From contig NW_004798372.1 of assembly GCF_000002075.1 (NCBI RefSeq), positions 81,338 to 142,242 of the forward strand: DNA of 60,905 bases. Direction: 5' to 3'. Origin of the DNA: Aplysia californica. Its lineage: Eukaryota. Below, piece after piece: positions 3,211 to 60,377 of this stretch; position 1 is the stretch's first letter; every line of letters starts with the position of its first letter. The notes under the pieces are model-generated. The model ran no database searches. It worked only from the letters and a program-made list of their open reading frames with translations, and was not told where the DNA came from. The translations under genes and the position numbers were made by a program.

Positions 3211-3433
3211 GTTTATTTTACAGTTATTCCCCTCTATATAAGAACCGCAGATAATTTTTGTTGTTTGTTTTGTGAAGACTAAAATAAAGAAAATTTATTT
3301 TTTATTTTTACACACCAATAACTTTATGGCTTTATTTGCACCCATCAAAATGTTTTTAATCAGCTCATTTGAATTTTTAAAATTCCCTAAAACCAGAAAA
3401 ATTTGCTGCGAACTTTCAATGTATATGGCAACC
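3211..3433. promoter_or_regulatory. Compact bidirectional promoter/5' UTR region shared by COQ6 and FAM161
   Basis: Only about 215-225 bp separate the divergent ATGs (3210 on -, 3425/3434 on +). TSS positions cannot be determined from sequence alone. Confidence 0.6.
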
Positions 3434-6400
3434 ATGGCGTCAACAAGTCACGGTTTGTCTGTGTGGGCAAATGCCTGTGTGAAAAACCCAATTAATCCTA
3501 AAACTGGATTGAGTTCGACGCTTCCAGAGAGGTCAAGGATTTCCATTCGTTTTGATGATGCTCTTAATGAAGTTGAAAGAGCCCGTTTGTTAAATGCGAC
3601 TGTCTCAGGTGACGGTCGTGACTGGGCCCGTGAATCTTTGGAGGGAAAAGATGTCAATTCGAGATTACAAGCTGCAACAGAACAAGAGTTCTATGAAAAA
3701 CTGCAGCAACTTAAAGAGGAAAATAGAAAGACTATCGAAGCATATGATAAACTTTACAAAGAAAAGATTCTTTTGGAAGGAATTCAAAGGGGGCAGACCA
3801 CCACTTTTCAGCCTGATAAATCTGGTGTTGACAGAGAGGTTGAAAATAATGTTCTTGGTCTTGATGGAAGCAATGCTAGGAACAGTGGGCCTGTTACAAA
3901 GAAACCTCCACCTGGTAAACCATGCATTTCTACATCCAATGCACCAATATTCAGTCGGACGGTGACACATCGCTCCGATACTGCCATCAAGTCAGAGCAA
4001 CCGCCCCTTGTGAGATCTAGAAGCCTTGATGAAGGAGACTTGAAATTAGATGGTCTTCCTGTCATGGGAAGTAAAGACAGTGATGATTTTCTTATTCAAG
4101 AGGGCAACATGTCTGAGTATGAAAAGGCTCTAGAGAAAGTAGACAAGCTATGGGAGGATTTTAAGATATCTGAGTACACACAACGAAGACATTCTTTTTC
4201 TTCTAATGAGCGAAAAAGAGACATAGAAAAGAAAGAGAAAGAATGGAGGCATAGAATAACCATACCACAGCCATTTAGTATGTCTATAAGGGAGGCCTTG
4301 AAAGATAAGAAAAAAACAAAGGCACAAGTAGATCTTGAAATCAGACGTCTTGAAAAGCAAAGACTCGAAGAAGAAGAATGTGCAAAGAAGTTCAAGGCTC
4401 AGCCAGTGCCATCGCATGTTTATTTACCCCTGTATGAAGAAATCATGGAAAAAAATGAAACTAGGCGCAAGTATGCTAAAGAGTACTGCCAAGACTTACT
4501 GAAATCTCAAGTGAAGCCTTTTAATTTTGAAATAAGAGAACAGGAGAAAAAAGCGCAAAGGGTGCAGTCTGCTCCTGTCAAGAGACCTGAGAAAAAAGTG
4601 AAGACAACTTTCAAAGCAAAACCAGTGCCAAAGAATGTCTTCAACACTGATGTTGATGAAAAACTAATGGAGGATGAAGAATTGCGAAAAATTCGGGTTA
4701 GAATGAGGGCAAAGGAGCTTCTTAGAGAGTCATCTCTTCCTCCAAATATGGCAGCTCGGGAAAAGTTAAAGGAGCAGCAAAAGAAAGAGGAGGCAAGAAA
4801 AGCAAAAAAAAACGGAATGAAAAAACAACGGCCAAGAAGTGCACATGTTGTGCCAGACTATGATTTGCTCTACAGAGAATTTCAAAAAGAACTTGCCCGT
4901 CGCAAGACCATGAGAGAAGGAACTGTTGTCGAACCTTTTGAGCTTGAGACTGCAAGAATTAGACAATCTAGTCAAGAAAAAATTCAACATGACATAGAGG
5001 AGGATGAACGGCGCCTAAGAGAAGGACGTTGGCCATTCTCCGGTTCAAGGACAACACCAAGAAGTTCAATGAAGTATCTAGGTAAGAATGCAAAATAGTT
5101 TAACTTATGTGATTTCTAGAGTTTTCAAAATTATTTATTCAATGGTGGCAAATGCTTCTAAGAGTGACAGTGAAATTGAAAGTGCTTTCTTCAAGTTGAT
5201 TGTGAGTTGCTTTATACTTTGTCAGAAAGGTGCAGATCTGTGGGTCTTCAAAGTGAATCTGAGTCATGTCTTACAAAATTACAGCTACTTTGGTAGTGCT
5301 AATGGCAGATGCAACATTTTTGTTGCCCTCATGAAGTCTTTTGGGGTGAGCAACTCAACTGTCTACAATGGGCTGCACTTTCCTTCTTCGCTCTGCCATC
5401 GTACTGTTGAAGGCATCAAGTTATAGTGAGATGTTCTTATATTATATCGTTGACTCTTTTATCTTTTCTTAGTAAGATCTCCATTCTCTGACTTGAGACA
5501 GCTTGGTTATAATGACATTGCCGGGAACCACTCTCTGTACTAAAGGTCTTTCAGCTTTCTGATATTAAGATCCCACAGAGTGCTACAATGTACACTTGAA
5601 ATTATCTGAGAGAGCTACCCAGTGTTGAGGAGAAAAGTGGTTGTGCTAGACAGGTGGAGCTTTTGGATTTTGTCATTATAATGTAGAAAAAAATCCAAGG
5701 GCGGAAGTGAGAAATAGTCATTTGCACTGGTAATTGTCTTAGACAGGTGGTAGTTTTAGTAAGTTCAAATGTACATTAGTCTCTATCCAAACTCACGCCA
5801 TACAAAGGCATGCTCTGCTCAAATGCATGCTTTGGTCATTTGACAGGTTTTAAAGAATTATATAACTGAAACTTACAAATGCACAGTAACTACCTCTAAA
5901 TTCACACCTTGATCTGTAAAACATGCGGACAGGTAGAGTTTGACAAATGGAAATTTTTGCTGCATCCTACAAAGCTTGCATAAGACAAATGGATATTTAG
6001 CAAGATAACTCCTCATGCAAAACAAAGAGAGTGATATACAGAGTATTTACACTCAGTTATCAATGGACACAGAAGGATATATATGTTTAGTTTCATGCCT
6101 ATGAACATGATGTGCAACACTTGTGAATGCTGTAGAACACTAGACAGGCCTCTGTAGGATTAAAGTTGATCAAGTGATCAGCTGCTCTGGAAGAATTTAT
6201 GATGTAGGCTACTTCTTCAATGAATAACTAGAGAAAAGTCTCTCAGAATGTCTGATGTCATCCAAGAATTTGCCAAGTTGCAACTGACAGGTAGTCGAGA
6301 GTGGTCGCTTTGAAAGCCACCTGGTTTGCTATAATGACTACTTCCAATAGTGTCCTCTTATCTGTTTTATATTAGTTACTACACATCAGTACAGCGAATC

Positions 6401-19761: not shown

Positions 19762-22700
19762 TCAGTCCTGCATTTCCTCTGGTACTTCATGAGGTCCCAC
19801 AATGCCTGGCACGGCCAGCTGTTGCTTGCGTTTTTCGTCCTGTGCACTTCTGATAGCCGTCTCTCTCTCCTCCAGGAACAAATCCTCCAGGTCTTCTCCA
19901 GCGAATTCCTAGAGGGAACAAAATAAATTTCATATAGTTCGGACCAAGATTGCTAATAGTAGTTTCAATTACAGACTTGCAATTTAAAAATAACTGAGAA
20001 GGTTCCTCTTATGCATGTAGCCACCCCTCCCCCCAACACACACACAAAAGAGTAAGCAAGCATCATCCATGACAATGTTAAAAATACACACACACAAAAA
20101 AAACCTTTCCACAATTACAGATAACTACTGTTGCCAAACAATTTTAATACACTGATTATATATATATATATTTCCATTTCTCTTTCCATTTTCCCTCTGG
20201 CTAGTCAACAACACGTCATCAACTATGCTGTTGTACACACGTACAGGGTGATTCAAAAAAAACTTTACAACTTTTTTTCGAAATATTTCGCGCAAATGTT
20301 GTTCTAGAAAGATGAAATTTGGAACAGATACACTTCATTCAAAAGGAATTTGTTTGACATAAAATTCACACAGAAAAAAATTGTTTTCAGAACGGAAAAC
20401 GCATTTTAAAAAACCACACCCATAAACGTAAAATGCGCCAGTTTAAAAACAAAAGACACTCTCGCAAGGAAAGTCATGAGACGATTGATTTGGTTTTTGT
20501 CTTCTTTTTCTTCATAACATTTAATTGGTCCAACCTTTTGACATTAAACAACATTTAACTTCTCTTAGGAATTTAAAGAACTAACATTTTTGTTCTGGAA
20601 TTTTTAAACAAATGCTCCAAATGTCCTCCTTTGGACTCCAAACATTTTTTAATGCATCGTTTGAAATGCTCGATGACGGCCAAACACAGTTCCCGCGAAA
20701 TGTTTCTCACTTCATCACGGATTGCTTGTTTCATAATTTCAATGTTTTCAAACTGGTTTTGAAATATCCTGTCCTTCAGATACCCCCACAAGAAAAAGTC
20801 TAAAGAATTCAGGTCAGGAGAATGCGGAGCCCAAATGTGTTCACTTCTGCGACTGATCACATGATCTCCAAATTGGACAGCTAGTTGTGTCATAGATCTG
20901 ACAGAAACGTGTGGATTGGTCCCATCTTGCATGAACCACTGGTCATGGCGATCCAAGTGTCAGAGTCTCCCCAGATCCGTGCAGAATTTCTTCAGCACCT
21001 CGATATATCGGTCTGTGTTCACAGTTGCAACATGTCCGTCTGCGTCTTCAAAAAAAAAAGGACCCACCAAACCATAGGTGCTTAAAGCCACCGACACTGT
21101 ACACCTTTCTGAAGGACAGGATATTTCAAAACCAGTTTGAAAACACTGAAATTATGAAACAAGCAATCCGTGATGAAGTGAGAAACATTCCGCGGGAACT
21201 GTGTTTGGCCGTCATCGAGCATTTCAAATGCGTTAAAAGATGTTTGGAGTCCAAAGGAGGACATGTGGAGCATTTGTTTTAGAAATTCCACAACAAAAAT
21301 GTTAATTCTTTAATTCCCTAAGAGATGCTAAATATTGTTTAATGTCACAATGTTCAAACAAATAAATGTTATAGAGGAAAAGAAGACAAAAATCAAATCA
21401 ATCGTCTCGTGACCTTCCTTGCGAGAGTGTCTTTTTTTAAATTGGCGCATTTTGCGTTTATGGGTGTTTTTTTCATTATGCTTTTCCGTGTGAAAATTAG
21501 TTTCTTCTGTATGAATTTTATGTCAAACAAATTCCTTTTGAATGAAGTTTATCTGTTCTAAATTTAATCTTTCTAGAACAACATTAGCGCGAGATATTTA
21601 GAAAAAAAGTTGTTAAGTTTTTTTTTTGGATCACCCTGTAAGTGGCAAAGCTTCAAGGAGAAATCATGCCAAGCCATAAAACAGCTTATTACATCATTTT
21701 TTTCAATACAAGTACAGTATAACCTGCTGTAATAGCCTCCTGTATAAGGCAATCACCTGTACAAACAACCACTTCCCACTCTTCATGTTTTTTTCTTCAT
21801 TATAATGACACTGCCCAGGACATTACCAGTTTACAATTACAACAACCAGTTTTTCCTCCATTATGGGTGGCCATACCATTTCGACTGAAAATATTAAATG
21901 ACACCCAAAGCATAAAATAAAGCATAGACCTCCTTACCCTAATTTGGACCAAGAAATCCCTTAAGTGCTCTTTCAGGGCATTGCAGTCTTGATCAAAACT
22001 GAAAAGGCCCTCAATGAAGATTTTGATTTGTTGTCTGGGGAAAGAAACCAAAAAAATTGTACATAAACCAAAGAATCACATAAGTGACTATCTTTTACAG
22101 ATGAGCTCAAGTATCTTAACAGCTGTTTACTTCCAAGAGATTCTAAAATTAGTAATACTTAAAAAGCCCCAAAAATGTGATTCCAAAAAGCAAAGACAAG
22201 ACAATGAAGCAAACATTTCAATACTCATTTGAACAACAACAAAAGAAGCAGTCAAGAGGTTTTCACCTTTTAACTCACTGGCTGCTGCACCTGAGGTGTC
22301 TTGGGAAAAATCGATAAACAAAGTGTTGCCATTACTCTTACCCCTTGGTTTCGAATTTCATATAATTTATTTTCTATTATTCGAAAGTGTTTTCGGGCTA
22401 GTCTTTACGGTTATGCAGCTGCTGTCCTTTATGAATCGATTGAGCATTGTTCCAGTTACATCCCTTGATAATTGACTTAGATTTAGATACAATTGGTCGC
22501 ATTTAAGCACGGGGGCTATCCCGAAAAGTGCTGTTTTGAGAAAATCGAAGCTAAAGTTTCTGCCCCTTGTTCAGTTTCTTGAAAATATGAGGAAAGTTTT
22601 GTCTATAACCACACAAATATACACACCAATGAAACCAAACTTCTCCTATAGGTAGGGCAATGCCCACTTTTGGTGTAGGTCAAGATTTCTTGAACCCCCG

Positions 22701-25700: not shown

Positions 25701-28700
25701 CCAGGACCTTTGAAAGAGAGGCGAACACCTTAACCTAGTGGCCACGAGAGCCCCCTTTCATAATTTTTACAAAAATGCATTTCAACAAATACCAAAAAAA
25801 ACACCAAAAAAAAACAAAAAAACTCAGGAGAATATGGTAACCAGTTTTTCAGTACTCACTTTGTTGATCATGGTCAATGTACACTCGAAGAGAGCATCGA
25901 AGATTTGAGGAATATCTTTTGTGATGCATCCCTGAGGGAGAAAACAAAAAAAAGTTGTGACAAGTTTTGACAAAATGGACCGTCTAAGCAAACAAAAAGT
26001 AAACAACAGTATGGGGATCACTCTCATTGCAAAATAAAACAAAAACTATATTTAGAGAAACATAAAACTGCACAGAGTCCGTTGAAATTAACTAATATCA
26101 AAATGAAATTTGAAATTGTTCCAAGTCACCTTTAATATGGAAGTGAAAAACGTTTCACAGCCTCATTATGAGTCAAACAATTTAAGGTACAGCAAAGGAA
26201 AAGGGTGGCACCCTCCAACAATCCACATATCATGCCATATCCTACCTTTAAACTGTTGACAATGGTTGCCATTGTACTGAGTACCTCCGGTTCTCGCGCG
26301 GCTGGCACATTCCTCTGGTAGTCCAGCAGAACAGCTTCCAGAAGAGGCAGGATAAAATTCTCGGCAACCTGAAGCACACACCAAAACAATAACAATAGAA
26401 ACATAAAAAGTAAATACAGGGAGGAGAATAAATACGGTTTGTGTAGCAAAAATCAAGGTATCTTCACCTATACAAAAAAACTACAAACTCCAGGAAAACC
26501 TAGAAACGGCCTCCGCCTGGGAATTATCACTGATAACAGAATATACACAAATTTTTCAACATAGAACCCATCAAAACTCAAAACCAAAAGGCTCAACGAG
26601 CCAGTCTGGACTATTACAAACTTTTGACCTGTCTCCAGTGCAATTTTCAGATTTATAGATGTGTATATATATCAATATATATTCATTGTACTTGGAAATT
26701 TGATAACATAAATGACAACATATCGCGACCTCAGTGCTTTCTTGTTGTATCTCTATTTTTTCATAACATTGAAAATGGGACTTCTTCTTAAGCTCACTCT
26801 TTGTTATGAACTGTTTTCACTGTAAAAAAAAAAAAAATGGAGATATGACAAGAAAGCACTGAGGTCGTGATATGTCATGTAGATACAAAATGATTATTTA
26901 GAGTAGCTATACTTACAACTACTGCAAACCCTTCCAGATCAAAACTTGGTATCAAGTCTCAAAGAAATCTCAGAGCATGAAACAAAAGAAACCTGTGTGC
27001 TCCAAGATCTTTCGTTCTTTTTTTTTGTGTTGTTTCAAATATTTTACTCTTTTGATCATGAAGGAGTCAGACTGCAACGACCCCTCCAGTCAAGGCAAAC
27101 CTAGACTATGTGGTACTGCACCCCAGCAGAAAGACTAAGAGCTCAACAAAGGAACACAAACATGAAATACGATGTTGTTGGTCCCAAACATACATCTTCA
27201 ATCTTTTTTCCCAAAACACAGTCAAGTGATAAGTGACATATACCACCTATGTATATTTTCTCTTCTCACCATCTGTGGGTCTGTTGACCGGTTGACCCAG
27301 CCCGAGATCAGCTTGAGAGTCTCCTTTTTCACTGTCCTCATGGAGCGGATCAGCGGCTGTTTGGTCACACTCTCTCCGTTGGTGGCGATAGCACTACTGA
27401 TGTTCTCACTCATCACCTGGTGACACATGGTGCACATTTTACACAGGAGCTAATCAATTCATAGACTCATGCAGGATGGTGAGACAATTTGCTATGTATG
27501 CTGAGGTATGTGTTCAGAATGCAAAAAGGGCATGGTCTGGACTAGGGTGAGGGGCTGAAAAAGTTGGGTGTTAAAAAGTACAACAGTGAAAATACACCGA
27601 GTTCTAGAATTCAAATGATTGCACACAAAAAAACGAAAATCCCCTTCACATCGCTCTCTACCATCCCTCACCTTGTACACATTGAGCATGTCGAGGTAAA
27701 TGCGTCCGAGCTGCACCACGTAGGGATGTCCCAGCGCCTTGCAGGCCCGCACATTGGTCTTGAGGATGTTAGCCAGCTGTTTGACCGCTTCTGGGTCCTT
27801 TAACACTTGCACATTGTGGGTGGCCTGGTTTATGATGCCATCCCACACCTGAGCACACAGCCACACACGGGGAAAGAGAAAGACGGATACTCATTAATAT
27901 TACAGCATGAACAAGTCACTACAAGCTCAAAAAAGTTTAGGTAACATGCTTTATTTTATTTTTTTCAGAATGACTCAAAAAACATGATACTGTACATTAA
28001 AACTGCTTTTAGCATTGTAAACATTCATAGGGGATATCTGTCGTACAAGAAACAGATATCCAAAAATGTTACAGTCCGGTTTTCTTCAATTTGTAAGAAA
28101 ACAGACAGCTTTTCCAAAATATAACAAACAGAAGAATGGAATATTTTTTAAATACAAAATTTCATGAAACAGATTTTTAAAAAAAAATATATTGATGCAA
28201 ACATGCTTATTTGACTTCTCTCTGCTTAAACAAATCTTGACCCATGGTCCGGAAAAAAAATAACAACCCAGATGAGTCTGCCACCTAACAATCTCTGCTA
28301 GCACAGAACCCCAAGCCCTCACCTGGTTGGGCAGCAGCATGTAACGTTCAATGAGGTGCTCCTGGGCCAGTTGGTCTGTCTGCGCCCCGATCATGAGGCC
28401 GACGGCCTCGTAGAACGTGTGCACCTGCTGGGGCTGCAGGTCACAGATGATGGTGTTGATGCCGTTCAGGATCTCCTCGATGAAGGGCATCACCTCGCCC
28501 ACCTGCACTTGCACAAAGTGGCGACGACACTTCTGGGCAATCTTGATGAAAGTATCGCACGCCATGTCTTGTACACCGTCATGGGTTTCTGAAAGGAAAC
28601 AGAAAGGTAAATATTCAGTCAGAGGAGAAGAAAAACAAAAACTTCCTTTTTCAAACTAAAGACTGATGAGTAAATACAGGTGAAGGTGGGCAAAGGTAAC

Positions 28701-54700: not shown

Positions 54701-57316
54701 AGATAAAGTTTTCAAAACAGTTTTGAAGATAATGAACCATGACTTGGCAAAATGCATTTTTTTTGTTCTGCTTCAAAGACTTATTTTTAACAATTTAGTT
54801 AAGATTATTTAAATTTCTCATTCTGGATTTTTAAAATTTTCTGTTAAGATTATTGTATTTTCTTATCCTCGGCAGCAAAACAAGCAGTATTGAAGACAGC
54901 TGAGAGTAAAGTGACCTCGGAGATGAAGACTAATATTGTGGAGAAGACACAAGATTCTGTGCAGCCAAAAGCTTTAACCTGCTCATTTGAGGGTTGCAAC
55001 CGAAAGTTTGCCTGGCAGAATCACTTAAAGTATCATGAGCTGACTCACACGTACGTATGGACAGAGTGGTGTGGTGTGGGGTAGAGGATTGCATTTCTTT
55101 TCTATTGATTACTTTTGTCTAGTGTCTTGCTTTACCGAGTAAATGAGCTTTATGATTGTGTTTTTGTACTCTTACATAGGGACTTTTGCATCTGTTTCTC
55201 TCTTACAAAACTAATTTATTGTGCTATGTCCAACACAACTGAAATAAAACTCTTGTCAGTTTTCTACTGTAATATTTTGGAAATTAAGTAGCCTCATCTA
55301 AGATACAGATATATCTACATGTTTCTAAGATAAGTTTATCAATGATGGGCCAACTTTAACAATCACATGTGGCTGATGGAATAGTGAAGAATACTTATGA
55401 CAAGGAAGAAAATACAAGATACATATGTGTCATGACGTGGTGGAATCGGGCGCTCGTCAATTTTGGGGCATATGAGGTTATTGGTATCATCTTAAAGCCT
55501 GTTCTTTTGCCTTGCTTTAGGTGAAAACAAATATCCATCTTTGTTGAATAGAAGTGGAAATATTTGCGATTGAGGGAGGTCAGGGTCGCCTAGTTTCAGA
55601 GGTAAAATTAGCGAGAAAATGGCCGCCAAAGTTTGGCAATTTCCATTGATTGAGAGTCCTTGGAAACTAAAAATGTACTTTTTTTGTGCCTTTAATCAAG
55701 GTTTTTCAGTAAAATCCATGGAGAAATGTGTTTTTATGGATGTAAAAGGTGTTAAGCCAAAAACAGAAAATTAGAAAAAATTGCTGAATGGCAAGGAAAA
55801 CGTCAATTTCTTTGATTCCATTATTTTGATGAGCTCCTGATTTCACCACGATGCCTCACATATACTTAAAATCAGTGGGTTGAAGAATGTGGAGTTGGCT
55901 ACAACAAATGGGGGATTGCAAAAAGCGACAACTATCACCAACAATGCCCCCCCCCCCACACACACACACACACACACACTCCAATGTAGGGGGCTCTTGT
56001 GTTCTAAAGGTATGGTGTTCGTCTCACATTCAAAAGGTCTGGGGTTTGAAATCTGTCTGCGGCGAAAAAATGTCCTTCTCTAAAAAAAATTGTCCTCTCA
56101 CGCCTATTTCCTGTTCTCGAGTTCTGTTCTGTCATCTGCTATCATTTCCACCCTCTCCCTTCTTCCACCACTTGCCTCCTCTGGGCTCCTTTCTCCTTTA
56201 CCCATGACCTTTTCTACTGCTACTTCTGGCTTCTTCTTACTATTGTCTTTCAGCTTCCCCTCTAATCTTAGGGTCGGTAAGATCGAACACCTTGCCTTCT
56301 TGAATAAGGATGAAAAATTTCTGAGTCTGAGGTCCCATGTGCAATTGGCACACGTAAAAGATCCGTTGGTGGTCTTAACCCCCGTCCCGCTATGCGCGTT
56401 CATCTACGCGAAGTAGGTCACTGCTCGAATAGCGCTGCGTGCGTACATCTACGCTCGCCGCCTGGCAGGGCGGGAAGCGCGCGAGTGGTAAATCTACGCT
56501 TCTAACCCTGACCTTCTTCAATGGAAAATTACTAATTCTTATTTATAGTAACATGACAACATCTATTACAAGATAGTTTATAAATATCATCCAATCAAAA
56601 TTCAGTTGTTCTTTTCCCGCTAACCTTCGAGATAGCGTCGCGTGGGACGCTGCAACAAGCCCTATTATCTCTTGACCTTTGGTCTGCTTGCTTGCTATCG
56701 GCTATCAGAGAGCGCACGTCCGAGAAAGTAAACACCTCTTTTGTTTTGCATTTTCGCGTTCTTTTTCCAAGTATTTCCAAGTTTAAAGTCATGGAAAATG
56801 ATGGAAGCATTCCTGAAGTGCTTGATTTGAGCAATCCTGACCACCTACGTCTTTTGATGGAGGCAAATGTGAGATATTTTGACCCCCCACTATCGGAGAC
56901 AGAGTCTGCTACTGCTTCCACTTCCAGCAATGTTTCTAGCGCTTCTCCTACTCCAGTGGATAGCTCATCATTGGAGCTTTCGTCACTGGTTGACAGTGAT
57001 TTGGAAGAGGATTTGTCTGAGCCCATCAACCCCCCTACGAGAGAACCTTTATCAGATGATGAAGATGAAACTCAACAAAGTAGCACGGATGAAGAACGGG
57101 GATGGAGGAGAGGTGCAACCAAGCCACCATCATGGGAGTTCAGTGGAACAAGTGGACTGCAGAGAGAGTTGAGTGACCCAACACCCCTTGGCTACCTCAA
57201 GCTACTCATCGACGATGACATGATGCAGAGCATAGTTGATGAAACAAACAGGTAAGTGTTGTGCAGTTTTATGTATAGATCTTAGCTAAAAAAATTGCAG
57301 TGAAATGTCCTTCTAC

Positions 57317-57373
<57 letters not shown>

Positions 57374-60264
57374 TGTGTGTGAGCGTGCGTGCATGCGTGC
57401 GTGCATGCGCGTTTGTGTGTGTGAGTGTGCGTATGTGTGCGTAGGTGTTTCATGCACATAGTGATATCATCAGGTTTTCAGCTGTTATTTGAGAATAAGT
57501 GAGAGGCATGGAAGGAAGGATAAAGTCAAAGAGTGAATATTCAGAGCATGATAACAAAAAATTAATGTGTACAGTAAAGAAAACATACAAATTCAATGTT
57601 ACATACACATCCGCAAATTATTTTTAGCTAAAGTCAAACTAATAGCTTTCTTATTGTTTCTATTTCAGATATGCTCAAACTTCGTTGGCAAACAAGACCC
57701 TTACCCCCAGCTCTCGCTTTCGCAAGTGGACCGATGTGACCCTCGAAACCATGTGGGCTTTCTTTGGACTGATCATCGGCATGGGGCTTATCATCGTGGA
57801 CGACCTTGAAGAGTATTGGTCCACTGACCCAGTCTATGCTCTCCCCCTCTTCCGATCTGTCATGTCAAGGGATCAGTTCAATCTGATTTTATCATATTTG
57901 CATCTCTGCAACAACGCCGACAATCAGCCGCGGGACAGTCCGAATTATGACCCATTATTCAAGATCAGGAAATTTGTTGATGCCTTGAATAACAATTTTC
58001 AGCGGACCTTCCACCCTGGGAAAGACATAGCTATTGACGAAGCTATGGTTGCTTGGAGGGGTAATTTGTCCTTCCGCGTATATAATCCTGACAAGCCGGA
58101 CAAATTCGGAATCAAGGTTTTTCAGCTCTGCGACAGCCAAACTGGGTACTGCAGCAACCTTGAGTTCTACACAGGGAAAAAAGCTCCGTCAGCGAAAGGG
58201 GCAACATTTGATGTTGTGGAGAGGCTCATTAGGCCATATATCAACTGTGGACGCACCCTGTATGTGGACAATTATTATACAAGCCCTGACTTGTTCACGT
58301 ACTTGAAGGAGCAGAGAACGCTGGCGTGTGGCACGATGAGAATAAACCGTAAAAATGGCCCACCCAAAACGATGATCCCGAAGTTGAAGAAAACAGAGAA
58401 GGAGACCGTTGCCCTTACGAACGGAGTGATCACCCTCCTTCGATTTTTTGACAAGCGGGAAGTCAATGTACTTACCACTGCACATGACAACTCTGTAGTT
58501 GACACTGGTAAAGTCAACAGGAGTACTGGAGACCCCATTATAAAACTCCATGCAGTGAATGAGTACAATAAACTCATGGGCGCCGTAGATCGCAGTGATC
58601 AAATGGTGGCGTACAATGCGTTCAAACGCCGTACTCTTAAGTGGTGGAAAAAAGCTTTTTTCCACATGTTCGGGCTCGGCGTCTTGAACGCATATCTTAT
58701 CTATCGAGCCACAACACCAGCAAGGGGCCAGCAATCCCACCGTATTTTTAGGAGAGAGCTTGTGAAACAGCTGGTGTCCCAAGCGCCAGTCGGAAGATCC
58801 CCTGCGTCAAAGTCAGGCAGAGAGCTAGGAGAATCAACAATATTCCGCCTCACAGCTAGGCACTTTCCAACCCCCATCCTCCCAAAATCTGACGCAGCGA
58901 AAAAAAGGAAGCCGCAGAGAGATTGTGCGGTATGCACTGAAAAGGGGAATCGCAAACAAAGTCGATTCGAGTGCACATCCTGCGATGTGGGGCTGCATGT
59001 GCATCCGTGCTTTCAGATCTTTCACACTTGTGTGAATCCTCGACGAGCCTTCAAAAGGCGACATCCTTCGGGAGAGGCCCAGGCTGAGTAGCCTGACTCC
59101 CAAGGCCGACAGATTTGGGAAAGGGGGATATGGGATGGGGTACTGTTACAGTGTAAATTTTCTATGTTGTAGGCCTACATGTTGTGTAATGTATAAGTGT
59201 GGTGGAAATCATTTTTGTGACTGGTGTGTGAATTATTCGTGGATTACTGGTACAGTTTTCTTCAATTCTGTTTTGGATTACCATTGATGTCTGCAGAATT
59301 CTACAGAAAAGGTCAGATTATTTTTGTATTCTNNNNNNNNNNNNNNNNNNNNNNNNNNNNNNNNNNNNNNNNNNNNNNNNNNNNNNNNNNNNNNNNNNNN
59401 NNNNNNNNNNNNNNNNNNNNNNNNNNNNNNNNNNNNNNNNNNNNNNNNNNNNNNNNNNNNNNNNNNNNNNNTTGGCTTTTATGCAAAAGATTTCTTATTT
59501 AGAAAATCATATTTTTTAAAATCATCAAATATATGGGAATACATTTATGTTTTCATATGGGCAATTCAATGCTCTTTAAGAAAATATATAGTTTAGCGGG
59601 GTTTAATAGGATTATAAAGACACAATGAGTAATTTTCTAACACATGGTAGGAATGCTCTATTTTAGCCAGCCACACCCCCATTGTTTTTAGTGGCAACCG
59701 GGAACCGCCCAGTGGAATTATGATAGCGCTTCCGGTTGACCTCGATCGCGGAAGTAGGGTTAAAATTGATAAAAGTAGGCTTTAGCTGCCACGTGGGTAA
59801 AATTCAAAATTAATTCATACCAAAACTGAAAATACTCTTGTCAGTATTAAAAGATAAGAGTACTTTTGAAATTGGAATGTGACTGCCTGAGGGCAAGGAG
59901 CCCTTCTAAGTAGATAAAATGGTCAGTATATGTAAAAATCAGTTGCACACTGCAGGTTGAAGAACCAACAGTCGGCTACCCTTGAGATCTAGCAGGGAAG
60001 GGCAAAGAAGAAGAAAAGTGTGAACATGTTGTGATTTTTCGTGGACTAGCTGGACTGGCTTTGTCTTTGTTTTTATTCTCAGCAATAACCGGCAACACAA
60101 GTGCCCAGTAGAGGCTTGTGACAAAACCTTCTTCACAGCCCAGCGTCTCAATGTACACCTACGGACACACACAGGGGAACGACCGTTTGCATGTTCCCAC
60201 CCAGACTGTGGGAAAAGCTTTACTACGGCGGGGAACCTGAAGAACCACCAGCGTATTCACACTG
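51720..60264 (+). CDS. ZNF410: ZNF410-like C2H2 zinc-finger transcription factor, 5' part (continues beyond window)
   Basis: Predicted exons 51720-51824, 52852-52998, 54389-54587, 54876-55050, 60083-60264 (phases 0,0,1,2,1). Fingers [23 protein letters not shown] / [23 protein letters not shown] / [23 protein letters not shown] match ZNF410 ZF1-3 as I recall them ([27 protein letters not shown]). Motif [19 protein letters not shown] resembles ZNF410 RVQELAHDSLIAATRAQLA. The first two exons are less certain and the N gap at 54030-54356 could hide sequence. Confidence 0.82.
52176..52570 (+). mobile_element. Degenerate family-B SINE with an internal 39-bp tandem duplication
   Basis: Similar to 49366-49730 (TGTATCTTTGGGAAAGAC, GGGTAATAAT.GGTTG, ATAAAATGCA..TTAT); duplicated unit TCTAAGCAGGATGGGTACTTTTTTTAAAGTGAAAGAT at 52289 and 52328. 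Confidence 0.55.
53290..53467 (+). repeat. Dispersed ~170-bp repeat, probable 3' end of a LINE
   Basis: GTGGGTGGTTGGCGGATGCTCTGGTGTGGTTTGCTTC...ACACCTCTAATCTTC...ATGACCTTATGCAGTTG...GCCGTAAAAC; at least five further copies in the window. Confidence 0.75.
55423..55863. mobile_element. ~440-bp MITE (copy 2, opposite orientation)
   Basis: Shares e.g. AGAGGTAAAATTAGCG.GAAAATGGCC.CCAAAGTTTGGC with the reverse complement of 50310-50741. Confidence 0.78.
56791..59091 (+). CDS. piggyBac transposase (PGBD4-like), 627 aa, two exons
   Basis: Exon 1 56791-57251 (acidic Ser-rich N-terminus), intron 57252-57668 (GTAAGT...TTTCAG), exon 2 57669-59091. Splicing restores the conserved ETNRYA motif. Catalytic DDD context IDEAM / VDNYYTS / GAVDRSDQ, C-terminal Cys-rich domain CAVC...[18 protein letters not shown], no stops or frameshifts. 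Confidence 0.92.
57318..57445 (+). repeat. Compound (GT)n/(GCGT)n microsatellite inside the transposase intron
   Basis: Directly visible. Confidence 0.95.
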
Positions 60265-60377
60265 GTAGGAAGCATGTTGCGTAATAGTTATGGGCCTATG
60301 TGGTGGGTGCTTTAGTGTGGTCTATTTGTGCTGTTATTTCTTTCCAGTGTGCCATTCCTGTCCAGTTAAAGTCTTAA

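Follow-up and report, generated by a model that had tools for sequence, protein, structure and literature searches.

The window analysed here, a 60,905-nucleotide stretch of the Aplysia californica genome, carries at 56379-59759 a piggyBac element of 3,381 bp with TTAA on both flanks (Table 1). The element lies in sense orientation within a 5,032-nt intron of a host gene, defined by a contig that joins 55050 to 60083 across GT..AG ends. The downstream host exon, 60083-60266, matches 6wmi_A over one 60-residue stretch (84 bits, E 3.5e-23); ZNF410 gave the best single stretch among the five hits listed, and many-fingered proteins scored higher on summed score. The same host intron holds a very high-copy, widely transcribed repeat at 55273-56036, with contig depth of up to ~95,000. 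Elsewhere in the window lie the long exon of a FAM161A/B-family gene (3326-5098, forward strand; Pfam PF10595, E 8e-59), what we take to be an exportin-1-like exon (28086-28565, reverse strand) and, presumably, a fragment of a Tc1/mariner transposase (20573-20932, reverse strand), the latter two with no Pfam match.

Table 1. Features of the piggyBac element and the surrounding host gene, in window coordinates
Feature	Position	Strand	Remark
Upstream host exon (part) with the first C2H2 finger of a ZNF410-like gene, followed by a phase-2 donor at 55051	54920..55050	+	
Left TTAA target-site copy	56375..56378	+	Other copies start at the same TTAA with different flanks
Left end with an imperfect terminal repeat and, subterminally, three direct repeats spaced 45 nt apart	56379..56513	+	piggyBat-like layout
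In-frame upstream acceptor region, AG at 56771	56747..56771	+	Pyrimidine-rich; kept in L005
Transposase exon 1, acidic Ser-rich N-terminus and conserved start of structured part (W105, F117, ETN 151-153)	56791..57251	+	
Predicted 417-nt phase-2 GT-AG intron	57252..57668	+	Best-scoring join; shared by L005 and L021
(GT)n/(GTGC)n microsatellite inside the predicted intron	57318..57439	.	Length differs between copies
Transposase exon 2, catalytic D277, D354, D461, plus D464 and Cys-rich C-terminal domain	57669..59091	+	
3' untranslated part and right end, including a run of N	59092..59759	+	
Right TTAA target-site copy	59760..59763	+	
Downstream host exon, two C2H2 fingers, ZNF410-like	60083..60266	+	

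The transposase is encoded by two open frames that an earlier note on this DNA had joined across a 417-nt GT-AG intron, restoring the family motif ETNR/YA (slashes mark splice junctions). Our results bear this out. The donor at 57252 reads CAG/GTAAGT and the acceptor at 57668 reads ...TTTCTATTTCAG/ (TTTCAG/), with a branch-point-like CTAAT at 57639; the intervening segment has stops in all three frames (6, 9 and 8). Joining 56791-57251 to 57669-59091 gives a protein of 627 aa with a single terminal stop. The regions scanned allow seven GT..AG joins that keep the frame, and in a profile test of five candidates the 57251/57669 join came top (741.7 versus 719.0 bits). The joined protein aligns without a gap at ETNR/Y to 72 full-length homologs. 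With a GT donor, a pyrimidine tract, a branch-like motif, an AG acceptor and a restored frame, the break carries the signals of a U2 intron, and it is likely an ordinary spliceosomal intron.

The protein itself is free of lesions, as the note had also held. D277, D354, D461 and D464 are present and conserved in the 72-homolog alignment, C573, C576, C589, C592, C601 and H606 of the Cys-rich domain are at least 95% conserved, and W105, F117, T152 and N153 of exon 1 are at least 97% conserved. Pfam recognizes DDE_Tnp_1_7 (E 3e-81) and scores zf-Tnp_2 at 23 bits, just below its cut-off of 24. The best match among solved structures is piggyBat (9c0f, E 4e-122), followed by Trichoplusia ni piggyBac (6x67, E 4e-58); among named homologs, the closest come from sacoglossan sea slugs, the best full-length ones being 57-62% identical. 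An unspliced frame would halt after 154 aa at an immediate stop, giving the acidic product that the note described; no Pfam domain was found in this product, which contains neither the catalytic core nor the Cys-rich domain of the C-terminus. A frame confined to exon 2 (446 aa) begins at residue 182 and lacks the conserved residues 105-174.

The microsatellite lies inside the predicted intron, as claimed, and looks incidental to it: at the identical site, the intron of a related family contains an (AG)n tract; L075 and others differ again. With its length varying between copies and a different repeat in the related family, a functional role for the microsatellite is rejected for now.

Both ends of the element are fixed by the junctions of other copies, in the genome and in sequencing runs, and in run X20 the right end is joined to a different flank. 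The claim of a real-looking intron in an element with TTAA duplication and termini stands. As in other PBLEs, there is a TTAA target-site duplication, also at other insertion sites, and the terminal inverted repeats are imperfect and start with C. They are poor, matching at 10/16 positions between left and right, with CCC at the start of both; the cited part of PMC5381638 allows wide variation in PBLE terminal inverted repeats. PBLEs usually have one uninterrupted reading frame, whereas this frame is split at codon 154, which makes the element a PBLE variant, not a non-member. Domesticated PGBD genes are single fixed copies that have lost their ends, whereas here the ends are intact, there are several copies and insertion sites are polymorphic.

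Among well-characterized relatives, piggyBat of Myotis lucifugus is the closest in layout. Its three catalytic motifs align with the window transposase, both proteins have an acidic N-terminus with casein-kinase-type motifs, and both elements have weak terminal repeats with motif repeats ~44-45 nt apart at the left end only, the right end of piggyBat being plain (PMC11707139, in part). The portion of PMC11707139 cited here mentions no intron in piggyBat, whereas the window element, which is putatively active, has a predicted one. T. ni piggyBac shares the DDD transposase, Cys-rich tail and TTAA target, but has a single frame and 13-bp terminal and 19-bp subterminal inverted repeats (cited section of PMC5381638).

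Copies, selection and a shared target site

Searching the same genome gave four matches to the left 925 nt of the element and ten to the rest, self counted. Two copies, L005 (88% identical) and L021 (79%), carry the predicted intron with its microsatellite and acceptor, and L005 also retains the donor. The segment is therefore found in three copies (window, L005 and L021), and the possibility raised earlier, that it is a copy-specific insertion, is rejected. Young left ends occur at two other places in the genome, L006 (99.8% over 524 nt) and L007 (98.8% over 80 nt); their right ends were looked for and not found. Runs X17 and X20 contain a near-identical copy with other flanks (left in both, right in X20), an insertion polymorphism; exon 1 of this copy carries one extra base. 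The element is recently mobile and low-copy; its young copies and the polymorphism bear indirectly on excision and integration.

In exon 2, L005 and L020 share 37 synonymous and 3 non-synonymous changes relative to the window copy (pN/pS 0.02), and this ratio indicates that exon 2 evolved under purifying selection. Against the decayed L005, no purifying selection was found on exon 1 (12 to 23; pN/pS 0.55, and 1.34 for codons 100-153). Divergence from L005 is uneven. At neutral sites the catalytic exon (57669-59091) has diverged 3-4 times as far as exon 1, intron and untranslated sequence (56379-57668): four-fold positions in the exon-2 core differ by 15-18%, the 3' part of the intron by 4%, exon 1 by 4% and untranslated sequence by 6%. 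Because exon 1 and the untranslated parts have changed as little as the intron, special constraint on the latter is rejected, and the pattern suggests recombination between subfamilies as the simpler reading.

The flanks of the X17/X20 copy, seen as loose ends at window positions 56375 and 59763, match exactly both sides of a TTAA at G000:C22:2483844 (L056, L066). In the assembled genome this same TTAA carries a different piggyBac family, L066. The site overlaps an AATAAA behind a reading frame and lies in the 3' end, with three occurrences in the genome, of a 306-aa open frame (L066:6205-7125, reverse strand); no Pfam match was found for this frame, which is probably another mobile element. 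Two paralogous empty sites differ by 1 and 2 bases. Because the genome has roughly 5.6 million TTAA (extrapolated from the window), two piggyBac families at one TTAA in different animals hint at a hotspot or targeting, the alternative being an unassembled paralog. That the two families are unrelated and occupy the site in different animals would fit targeted behaviour.

piggyBac families with predicted introns in this genome and beyond

A protein search of the genome gave at least 78 matches, from 74 of 593 candidates scored, and 59 loci of more than 300 aa formed the tree set (drawn from all match rows except 12, with the partial L020, L021, L025, L093 and L096 left out). The earlier note had considered an intron in such an element uncommon, an assessment that fails here: a predicted intron is present in 14 of the 41 piggyBac families sampled at 80% identity (11 of 35 at 70%), at least 12 of 80 metagenome loci have comparable breaks, and Pokey of Daphnia offers a precedent (PMC3575242, in part). 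The 27 families counted as intronless include L076, whose N-terminus is missing, and L068, and introns within the poorly conserved first 40 profile positions would escape detection. The 1-kb break of L068 was rejected as an intron and read as a passenger insertion; L059 and L061 were rejected as intron-bearing and have frameshifts. The joins are the best-scoring canonical ones in L026, L057, L058, L060, L062, L066, L067, L069, L073, L074, L075 and L082, and were read by eye in the decayed L022, L024, L070, L071, L089 and L094.

Six families (seven loci) need one GT-AG join to give an intact frame, of 605-627 aa. L066/L067 (14/14 terminal matches), L073 (12), L069 (11), L058 and L060 (10 each) and L062 (9) have ends bounded by TTAA; those of L082 are weak (7), and a search for such ends on L057, L074, L075 and L089 found none. 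L066 and L067 (G000:C22 and C31) are 2.7 kb long and 99.3% identical, with TTAA duplications and an intact 605-aa frame after removal of one intron of 332-338 nt that is full of TAGATC repeats; on their sequence they are the cleanest intron-bearing candidate for an active element. A clade with CAC ends (L057, L058, L060, L062 and L069) has introns at two sites, and four of its members give intact frames of 606-623 aa; its outgroup, L063, is intronless.

The predicted introns fall at sites corresponding to window residues 154, 187, 190, ~217, 233 and ~267, every one before D277, and that of L089 may mark a seventh. Were sites uniform over the searchable profile, six would all precede D277 with a probability of ~0.002, a figure computed after the pattern was seen. 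The tree has six changes of intron state; it is unrooted, and gain and loss are indistinguishable from it. The hypothesis of a single clade uniting the 14 intron-bearing rows tested was rejected (p-AU 1e-23), and so was a common origin of sites 187 and 190 (3e-5), and one origin of site 154 is compatible with the tree (0.15). Because the sites are distinct and lie among mostly intronless relatives, separate and repeated intron gains by piggyBac families of this genome are likely.

A break at site 154 also occurs in L022/L071 (56-61% identical in aa) and L024 (49%), in which exon 1 is still homologous to that of the window (41% and 38% aa, respectively). The L022 intron aligned to the window intron with a score of 28, no better than shuffled sequence, the shuffle maximum being 31. 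A host repeat, TAGATC, reaches 19.7 per kb in ten of the introns; neighbouring exons have 0.44 per kb and the window as a whole 1.0. The intron of the window element contains a single one, and that of L075 none. A common origin or Introner-like source of the introns was rejected: apart from L022/L071, only the host TAGATC is shared, and one clade is rejected.

Outside this genome, clear GT-AG breaks were read by eye in at least 12 of 80 metagenome piggyBac loci. None of the 80 is broken at the window's intron site, which 50 of them span in a single frame. Their introns lie elsewhere, including late sites (profile 204, 256, 420 and 450), and because of this the bias towards early sites belongs to the sample from this genome, not to piggyBacs at large. 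A shared late intron marks two metagenome groups, at profile ~420 and ~450: one comprises L147, L149, L151-L153 and L181, and the second L155, L157-L159, L162, L164, L169 and L174. TTAA-bounded ends are found on L113, L155 and L159. In L187, seven GT-AG introns split a piggyBac-like transposase for which no TTAA-bounded ends were found, and this gene is possibly domesticated. Two predicted proteins, P0031 and P0071, start exactly at site 154, and others at the first Met beyond.

Introns have precedents in and around the piggyBac superfamily, in different settings. Pokey is likewise mobile; its 16-bp ends are imperfect, and a single canonical GT-AG intron interrupts its transposase gene (cited parts of PMC3849761 and PMC3575242). 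Its intron is short (68-84 nt), late (after about codon 487 of 668) and confirmed by RT-PCR (PMC3575242, in part), whereas that of the window is 417 nt long, at codon 154, ahead of the catalytic core, and predicted. Pokey inserts into a specific TTAA of 28S rDNA, as described in these sources, whereas the flanks of the window family vary and the window copy sits in an intron of a zinc-finger gene. PGBD5, PiggyMac/PGM and TPB2 are also piggyBac-derived transposase genes with spliceosomal introns (PMC3902484 and PMC5381638, in part), but they are domesticated, and PGBD5 is described there as single-copy, without ends and with most catalytic aspartates lost. The passages cited from these two reviews take introns in piggyBac transposases to indicate domestication and describe mobile members as having a single frame. 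In molluscs, the Tc1-like TLEWI elements of bivalves provide a case of DNA transposons gaining introns and moving afterwards; they differ in belonging to the Tc1 family, having 2-5 introns and mostly unpaired ends, and being read as domesticated, and the cited part of that study did not find them in the gastropod genomes searched there (bioRxiv 10.1101/656579). The literature searched, with Repbase and Dfam outside its scope, yielded no account of repeated intron gain in the mobile piggyBacs of one genome. The supplement of PMC5381638, as far as cited here, lists a sea-hare element, AcaPBLE, and Repbase, Dfam or that supplement may already hold these families.

Transcripts and readings of the intron

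The reading we prefer, and hold to be quite probable, is that the host spliceosome removes the intron, that the full enzyme mobilizes the element by the usual cut-and-paste route and that the intron is inherited by the whole lineage. A left-end promoter, or read-through from the host gene, would give a pre-mRNA in which splicing would link exon 1, with its 154 codons, to the exon that encodes the catalytic residues. The resulting enzyme of 627 aa would bind the left end, with its repeats, and the right end, which is plainer, excise the element cleanly and insert it at TTAA, a route known from piggyBac and piggyBat. As these elements move as DNA, any intron that they acquire would travel with them at little cost. 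Unspliced RNA, stopping at codon 155, would be a dead end, and slow splicing would damp activity; tissue-specific control is possible, but is needed to explain nothing observed. The window intron is likely one of several separate gains by the piggyBac families of this genome.

Seven of the 24 listed sequencing runs were examined, three of raw poly(A) reads and four of contigs (X4, X5, X17 and X20). The earlier note had looked to spliced reads across 57251-57669, and these seven runs, with thin depth or contigs only, gave none: the joint is missing from the complete joint tables of the four contig runs and from the joints listed for the three raw-read runs, in which the element has a depth of ~2 or less and both host exons have zero depth, so that these three are uninformative. 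No entry in the run listing is recorded as RNA. Spliced host mRNA is present in all four contig runs, which therefore contain RNA. Contigs of X17 and X20 cross the donor unspliced, and one X17 contig crosses the acceptor unbroken. Contigs drop rare forms, and gaps in the contig cover of X4 and X5 were excluded as evidence. The copy in X17 and X20 sits just past the end of another reading frame, in a putative 3' untranslated region; because it does so and is frameshifted, its RNA may be read-through, and it may also be pre-mRNA or DNA. We infer splicing of the predicted intron, which these runs neither demonstrate nor refute, and the missing joint is the main result against our preferred reading.

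The predominance of unspliced RNA in X17 and X20, runs that do splice the host gene, would also be expected of a regulated switch in which the intron is retained in the soma and removed in the germline, confining transposition as in the P element. Retention would create an immediate stop, and with all six mapped sites ahead of the first catalytic residue it would always kill the enzyme. We nevertheless regard such a switch as unlikely: X17 and X20 come from one study with tissues unrecorded, the RNA is from the frameshifted copy discussed above and is open to the same three explanations, contigs lose rare forms, and the donor is near-perfect consensus. The P element is also a cut-and-paste element in which retention of an intron, IVS3, truncates the transposase, but it belongs to another superfamily, its tissue-specific splicing is proven and its truncated product keeps a THAP domain and represses (PMC7776569, in part). 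The parallel with the P element drawn in the earlier note does not extend to that product, as the 154-aa peptide has no Pfam family and no known DNA-binding domain; judged on its sequence it is at most an off state, not a P-type repressor. A broader reading, selection for early introns through at least six gains in about a third of the sampled families, all ahead of the catalytic core, by which DNA transposons would be taken for host genes and evade surveillance of intronless RNA or acquire a built-in off switch, is somewhat unlikely, a shade less so than the germline switch.

The position of the element in its host allows for another product, in which the ZNF410-like exon splices to the AG at 56771 to give a zinc-finger-transposase fusion, perhaps en route to domestication. 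There is an in-frame, pyrimidine-rich 3' splice site before the ATG, kept in L005, within a host intron of the same sense; two of the eight AGs in 56700-56791 are in frame, and that at 56771 has the most pyrimidines. CSB-PGBD3 shares this anatomy, with PGBD3 on the same strand in a host intron and an acceptor just before its ATG in the host frame, but PGBD3 is domesticated, consists of a single exon without interruption, has a poly(A) site and forms a fusion that is proven (PMC2268245, in part), whereas the window element has an internal intron, is a young mobile copy that keeps both ends, and no fusion is seen. By chance alone one acceptor in three would match the frame, the host mRNA of all four contig runs passes over the element, and neither AATAAA nor ATTAAA was found in the readable 3' part (59092-59759, which holds a run of N). 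No fusion RNA was found in the four contig runs, where cover is thin, and no loose end at 56772 was among those listed, X4 being uncovered there. Such a fusion is decidedly unlikely. Both the regulated switch and the host fusion can coexist with the main reading.

Finally, the 417 nt might never be spliced, an old insertion having broken the gene, with the 446-aa downstream frame or another copy supplying the enzyme. The RNA is seen solely unspliced, and the L068 family offers an example of a 1-kb passenger-like insertion. This is nonetheless highly improbable, given that the frame is restored by exact GT-AG ends, four clusters have a break at this site and differ entirely in its interior, two-exon frames are intact in six families, and the short frame would lack the conserved residues noted above.

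Implications for mobile piggyBacs

Taken alone, the element adds little beyond Pokey; the interesting part is the repeated, position-biased gain of introns. Contrary to the picture in reviews, intact, TTAA-bounded, young piggyBacs in this genome carry predicted introns at many sites, a pattern that suggests that mobile DNA has gained introns repeatedly. Surveys that look for one long frame would score such elements as broken and would miss active transposases. In human cells, introns protect transgenes from HUSH (PMC8770142, in part), and the family set described here serves the question of whether introns shield mobile DNA from silencing. With families both with and without introns in one genome, and with copies that can be dated, it is also a system for studying how new introns arise.
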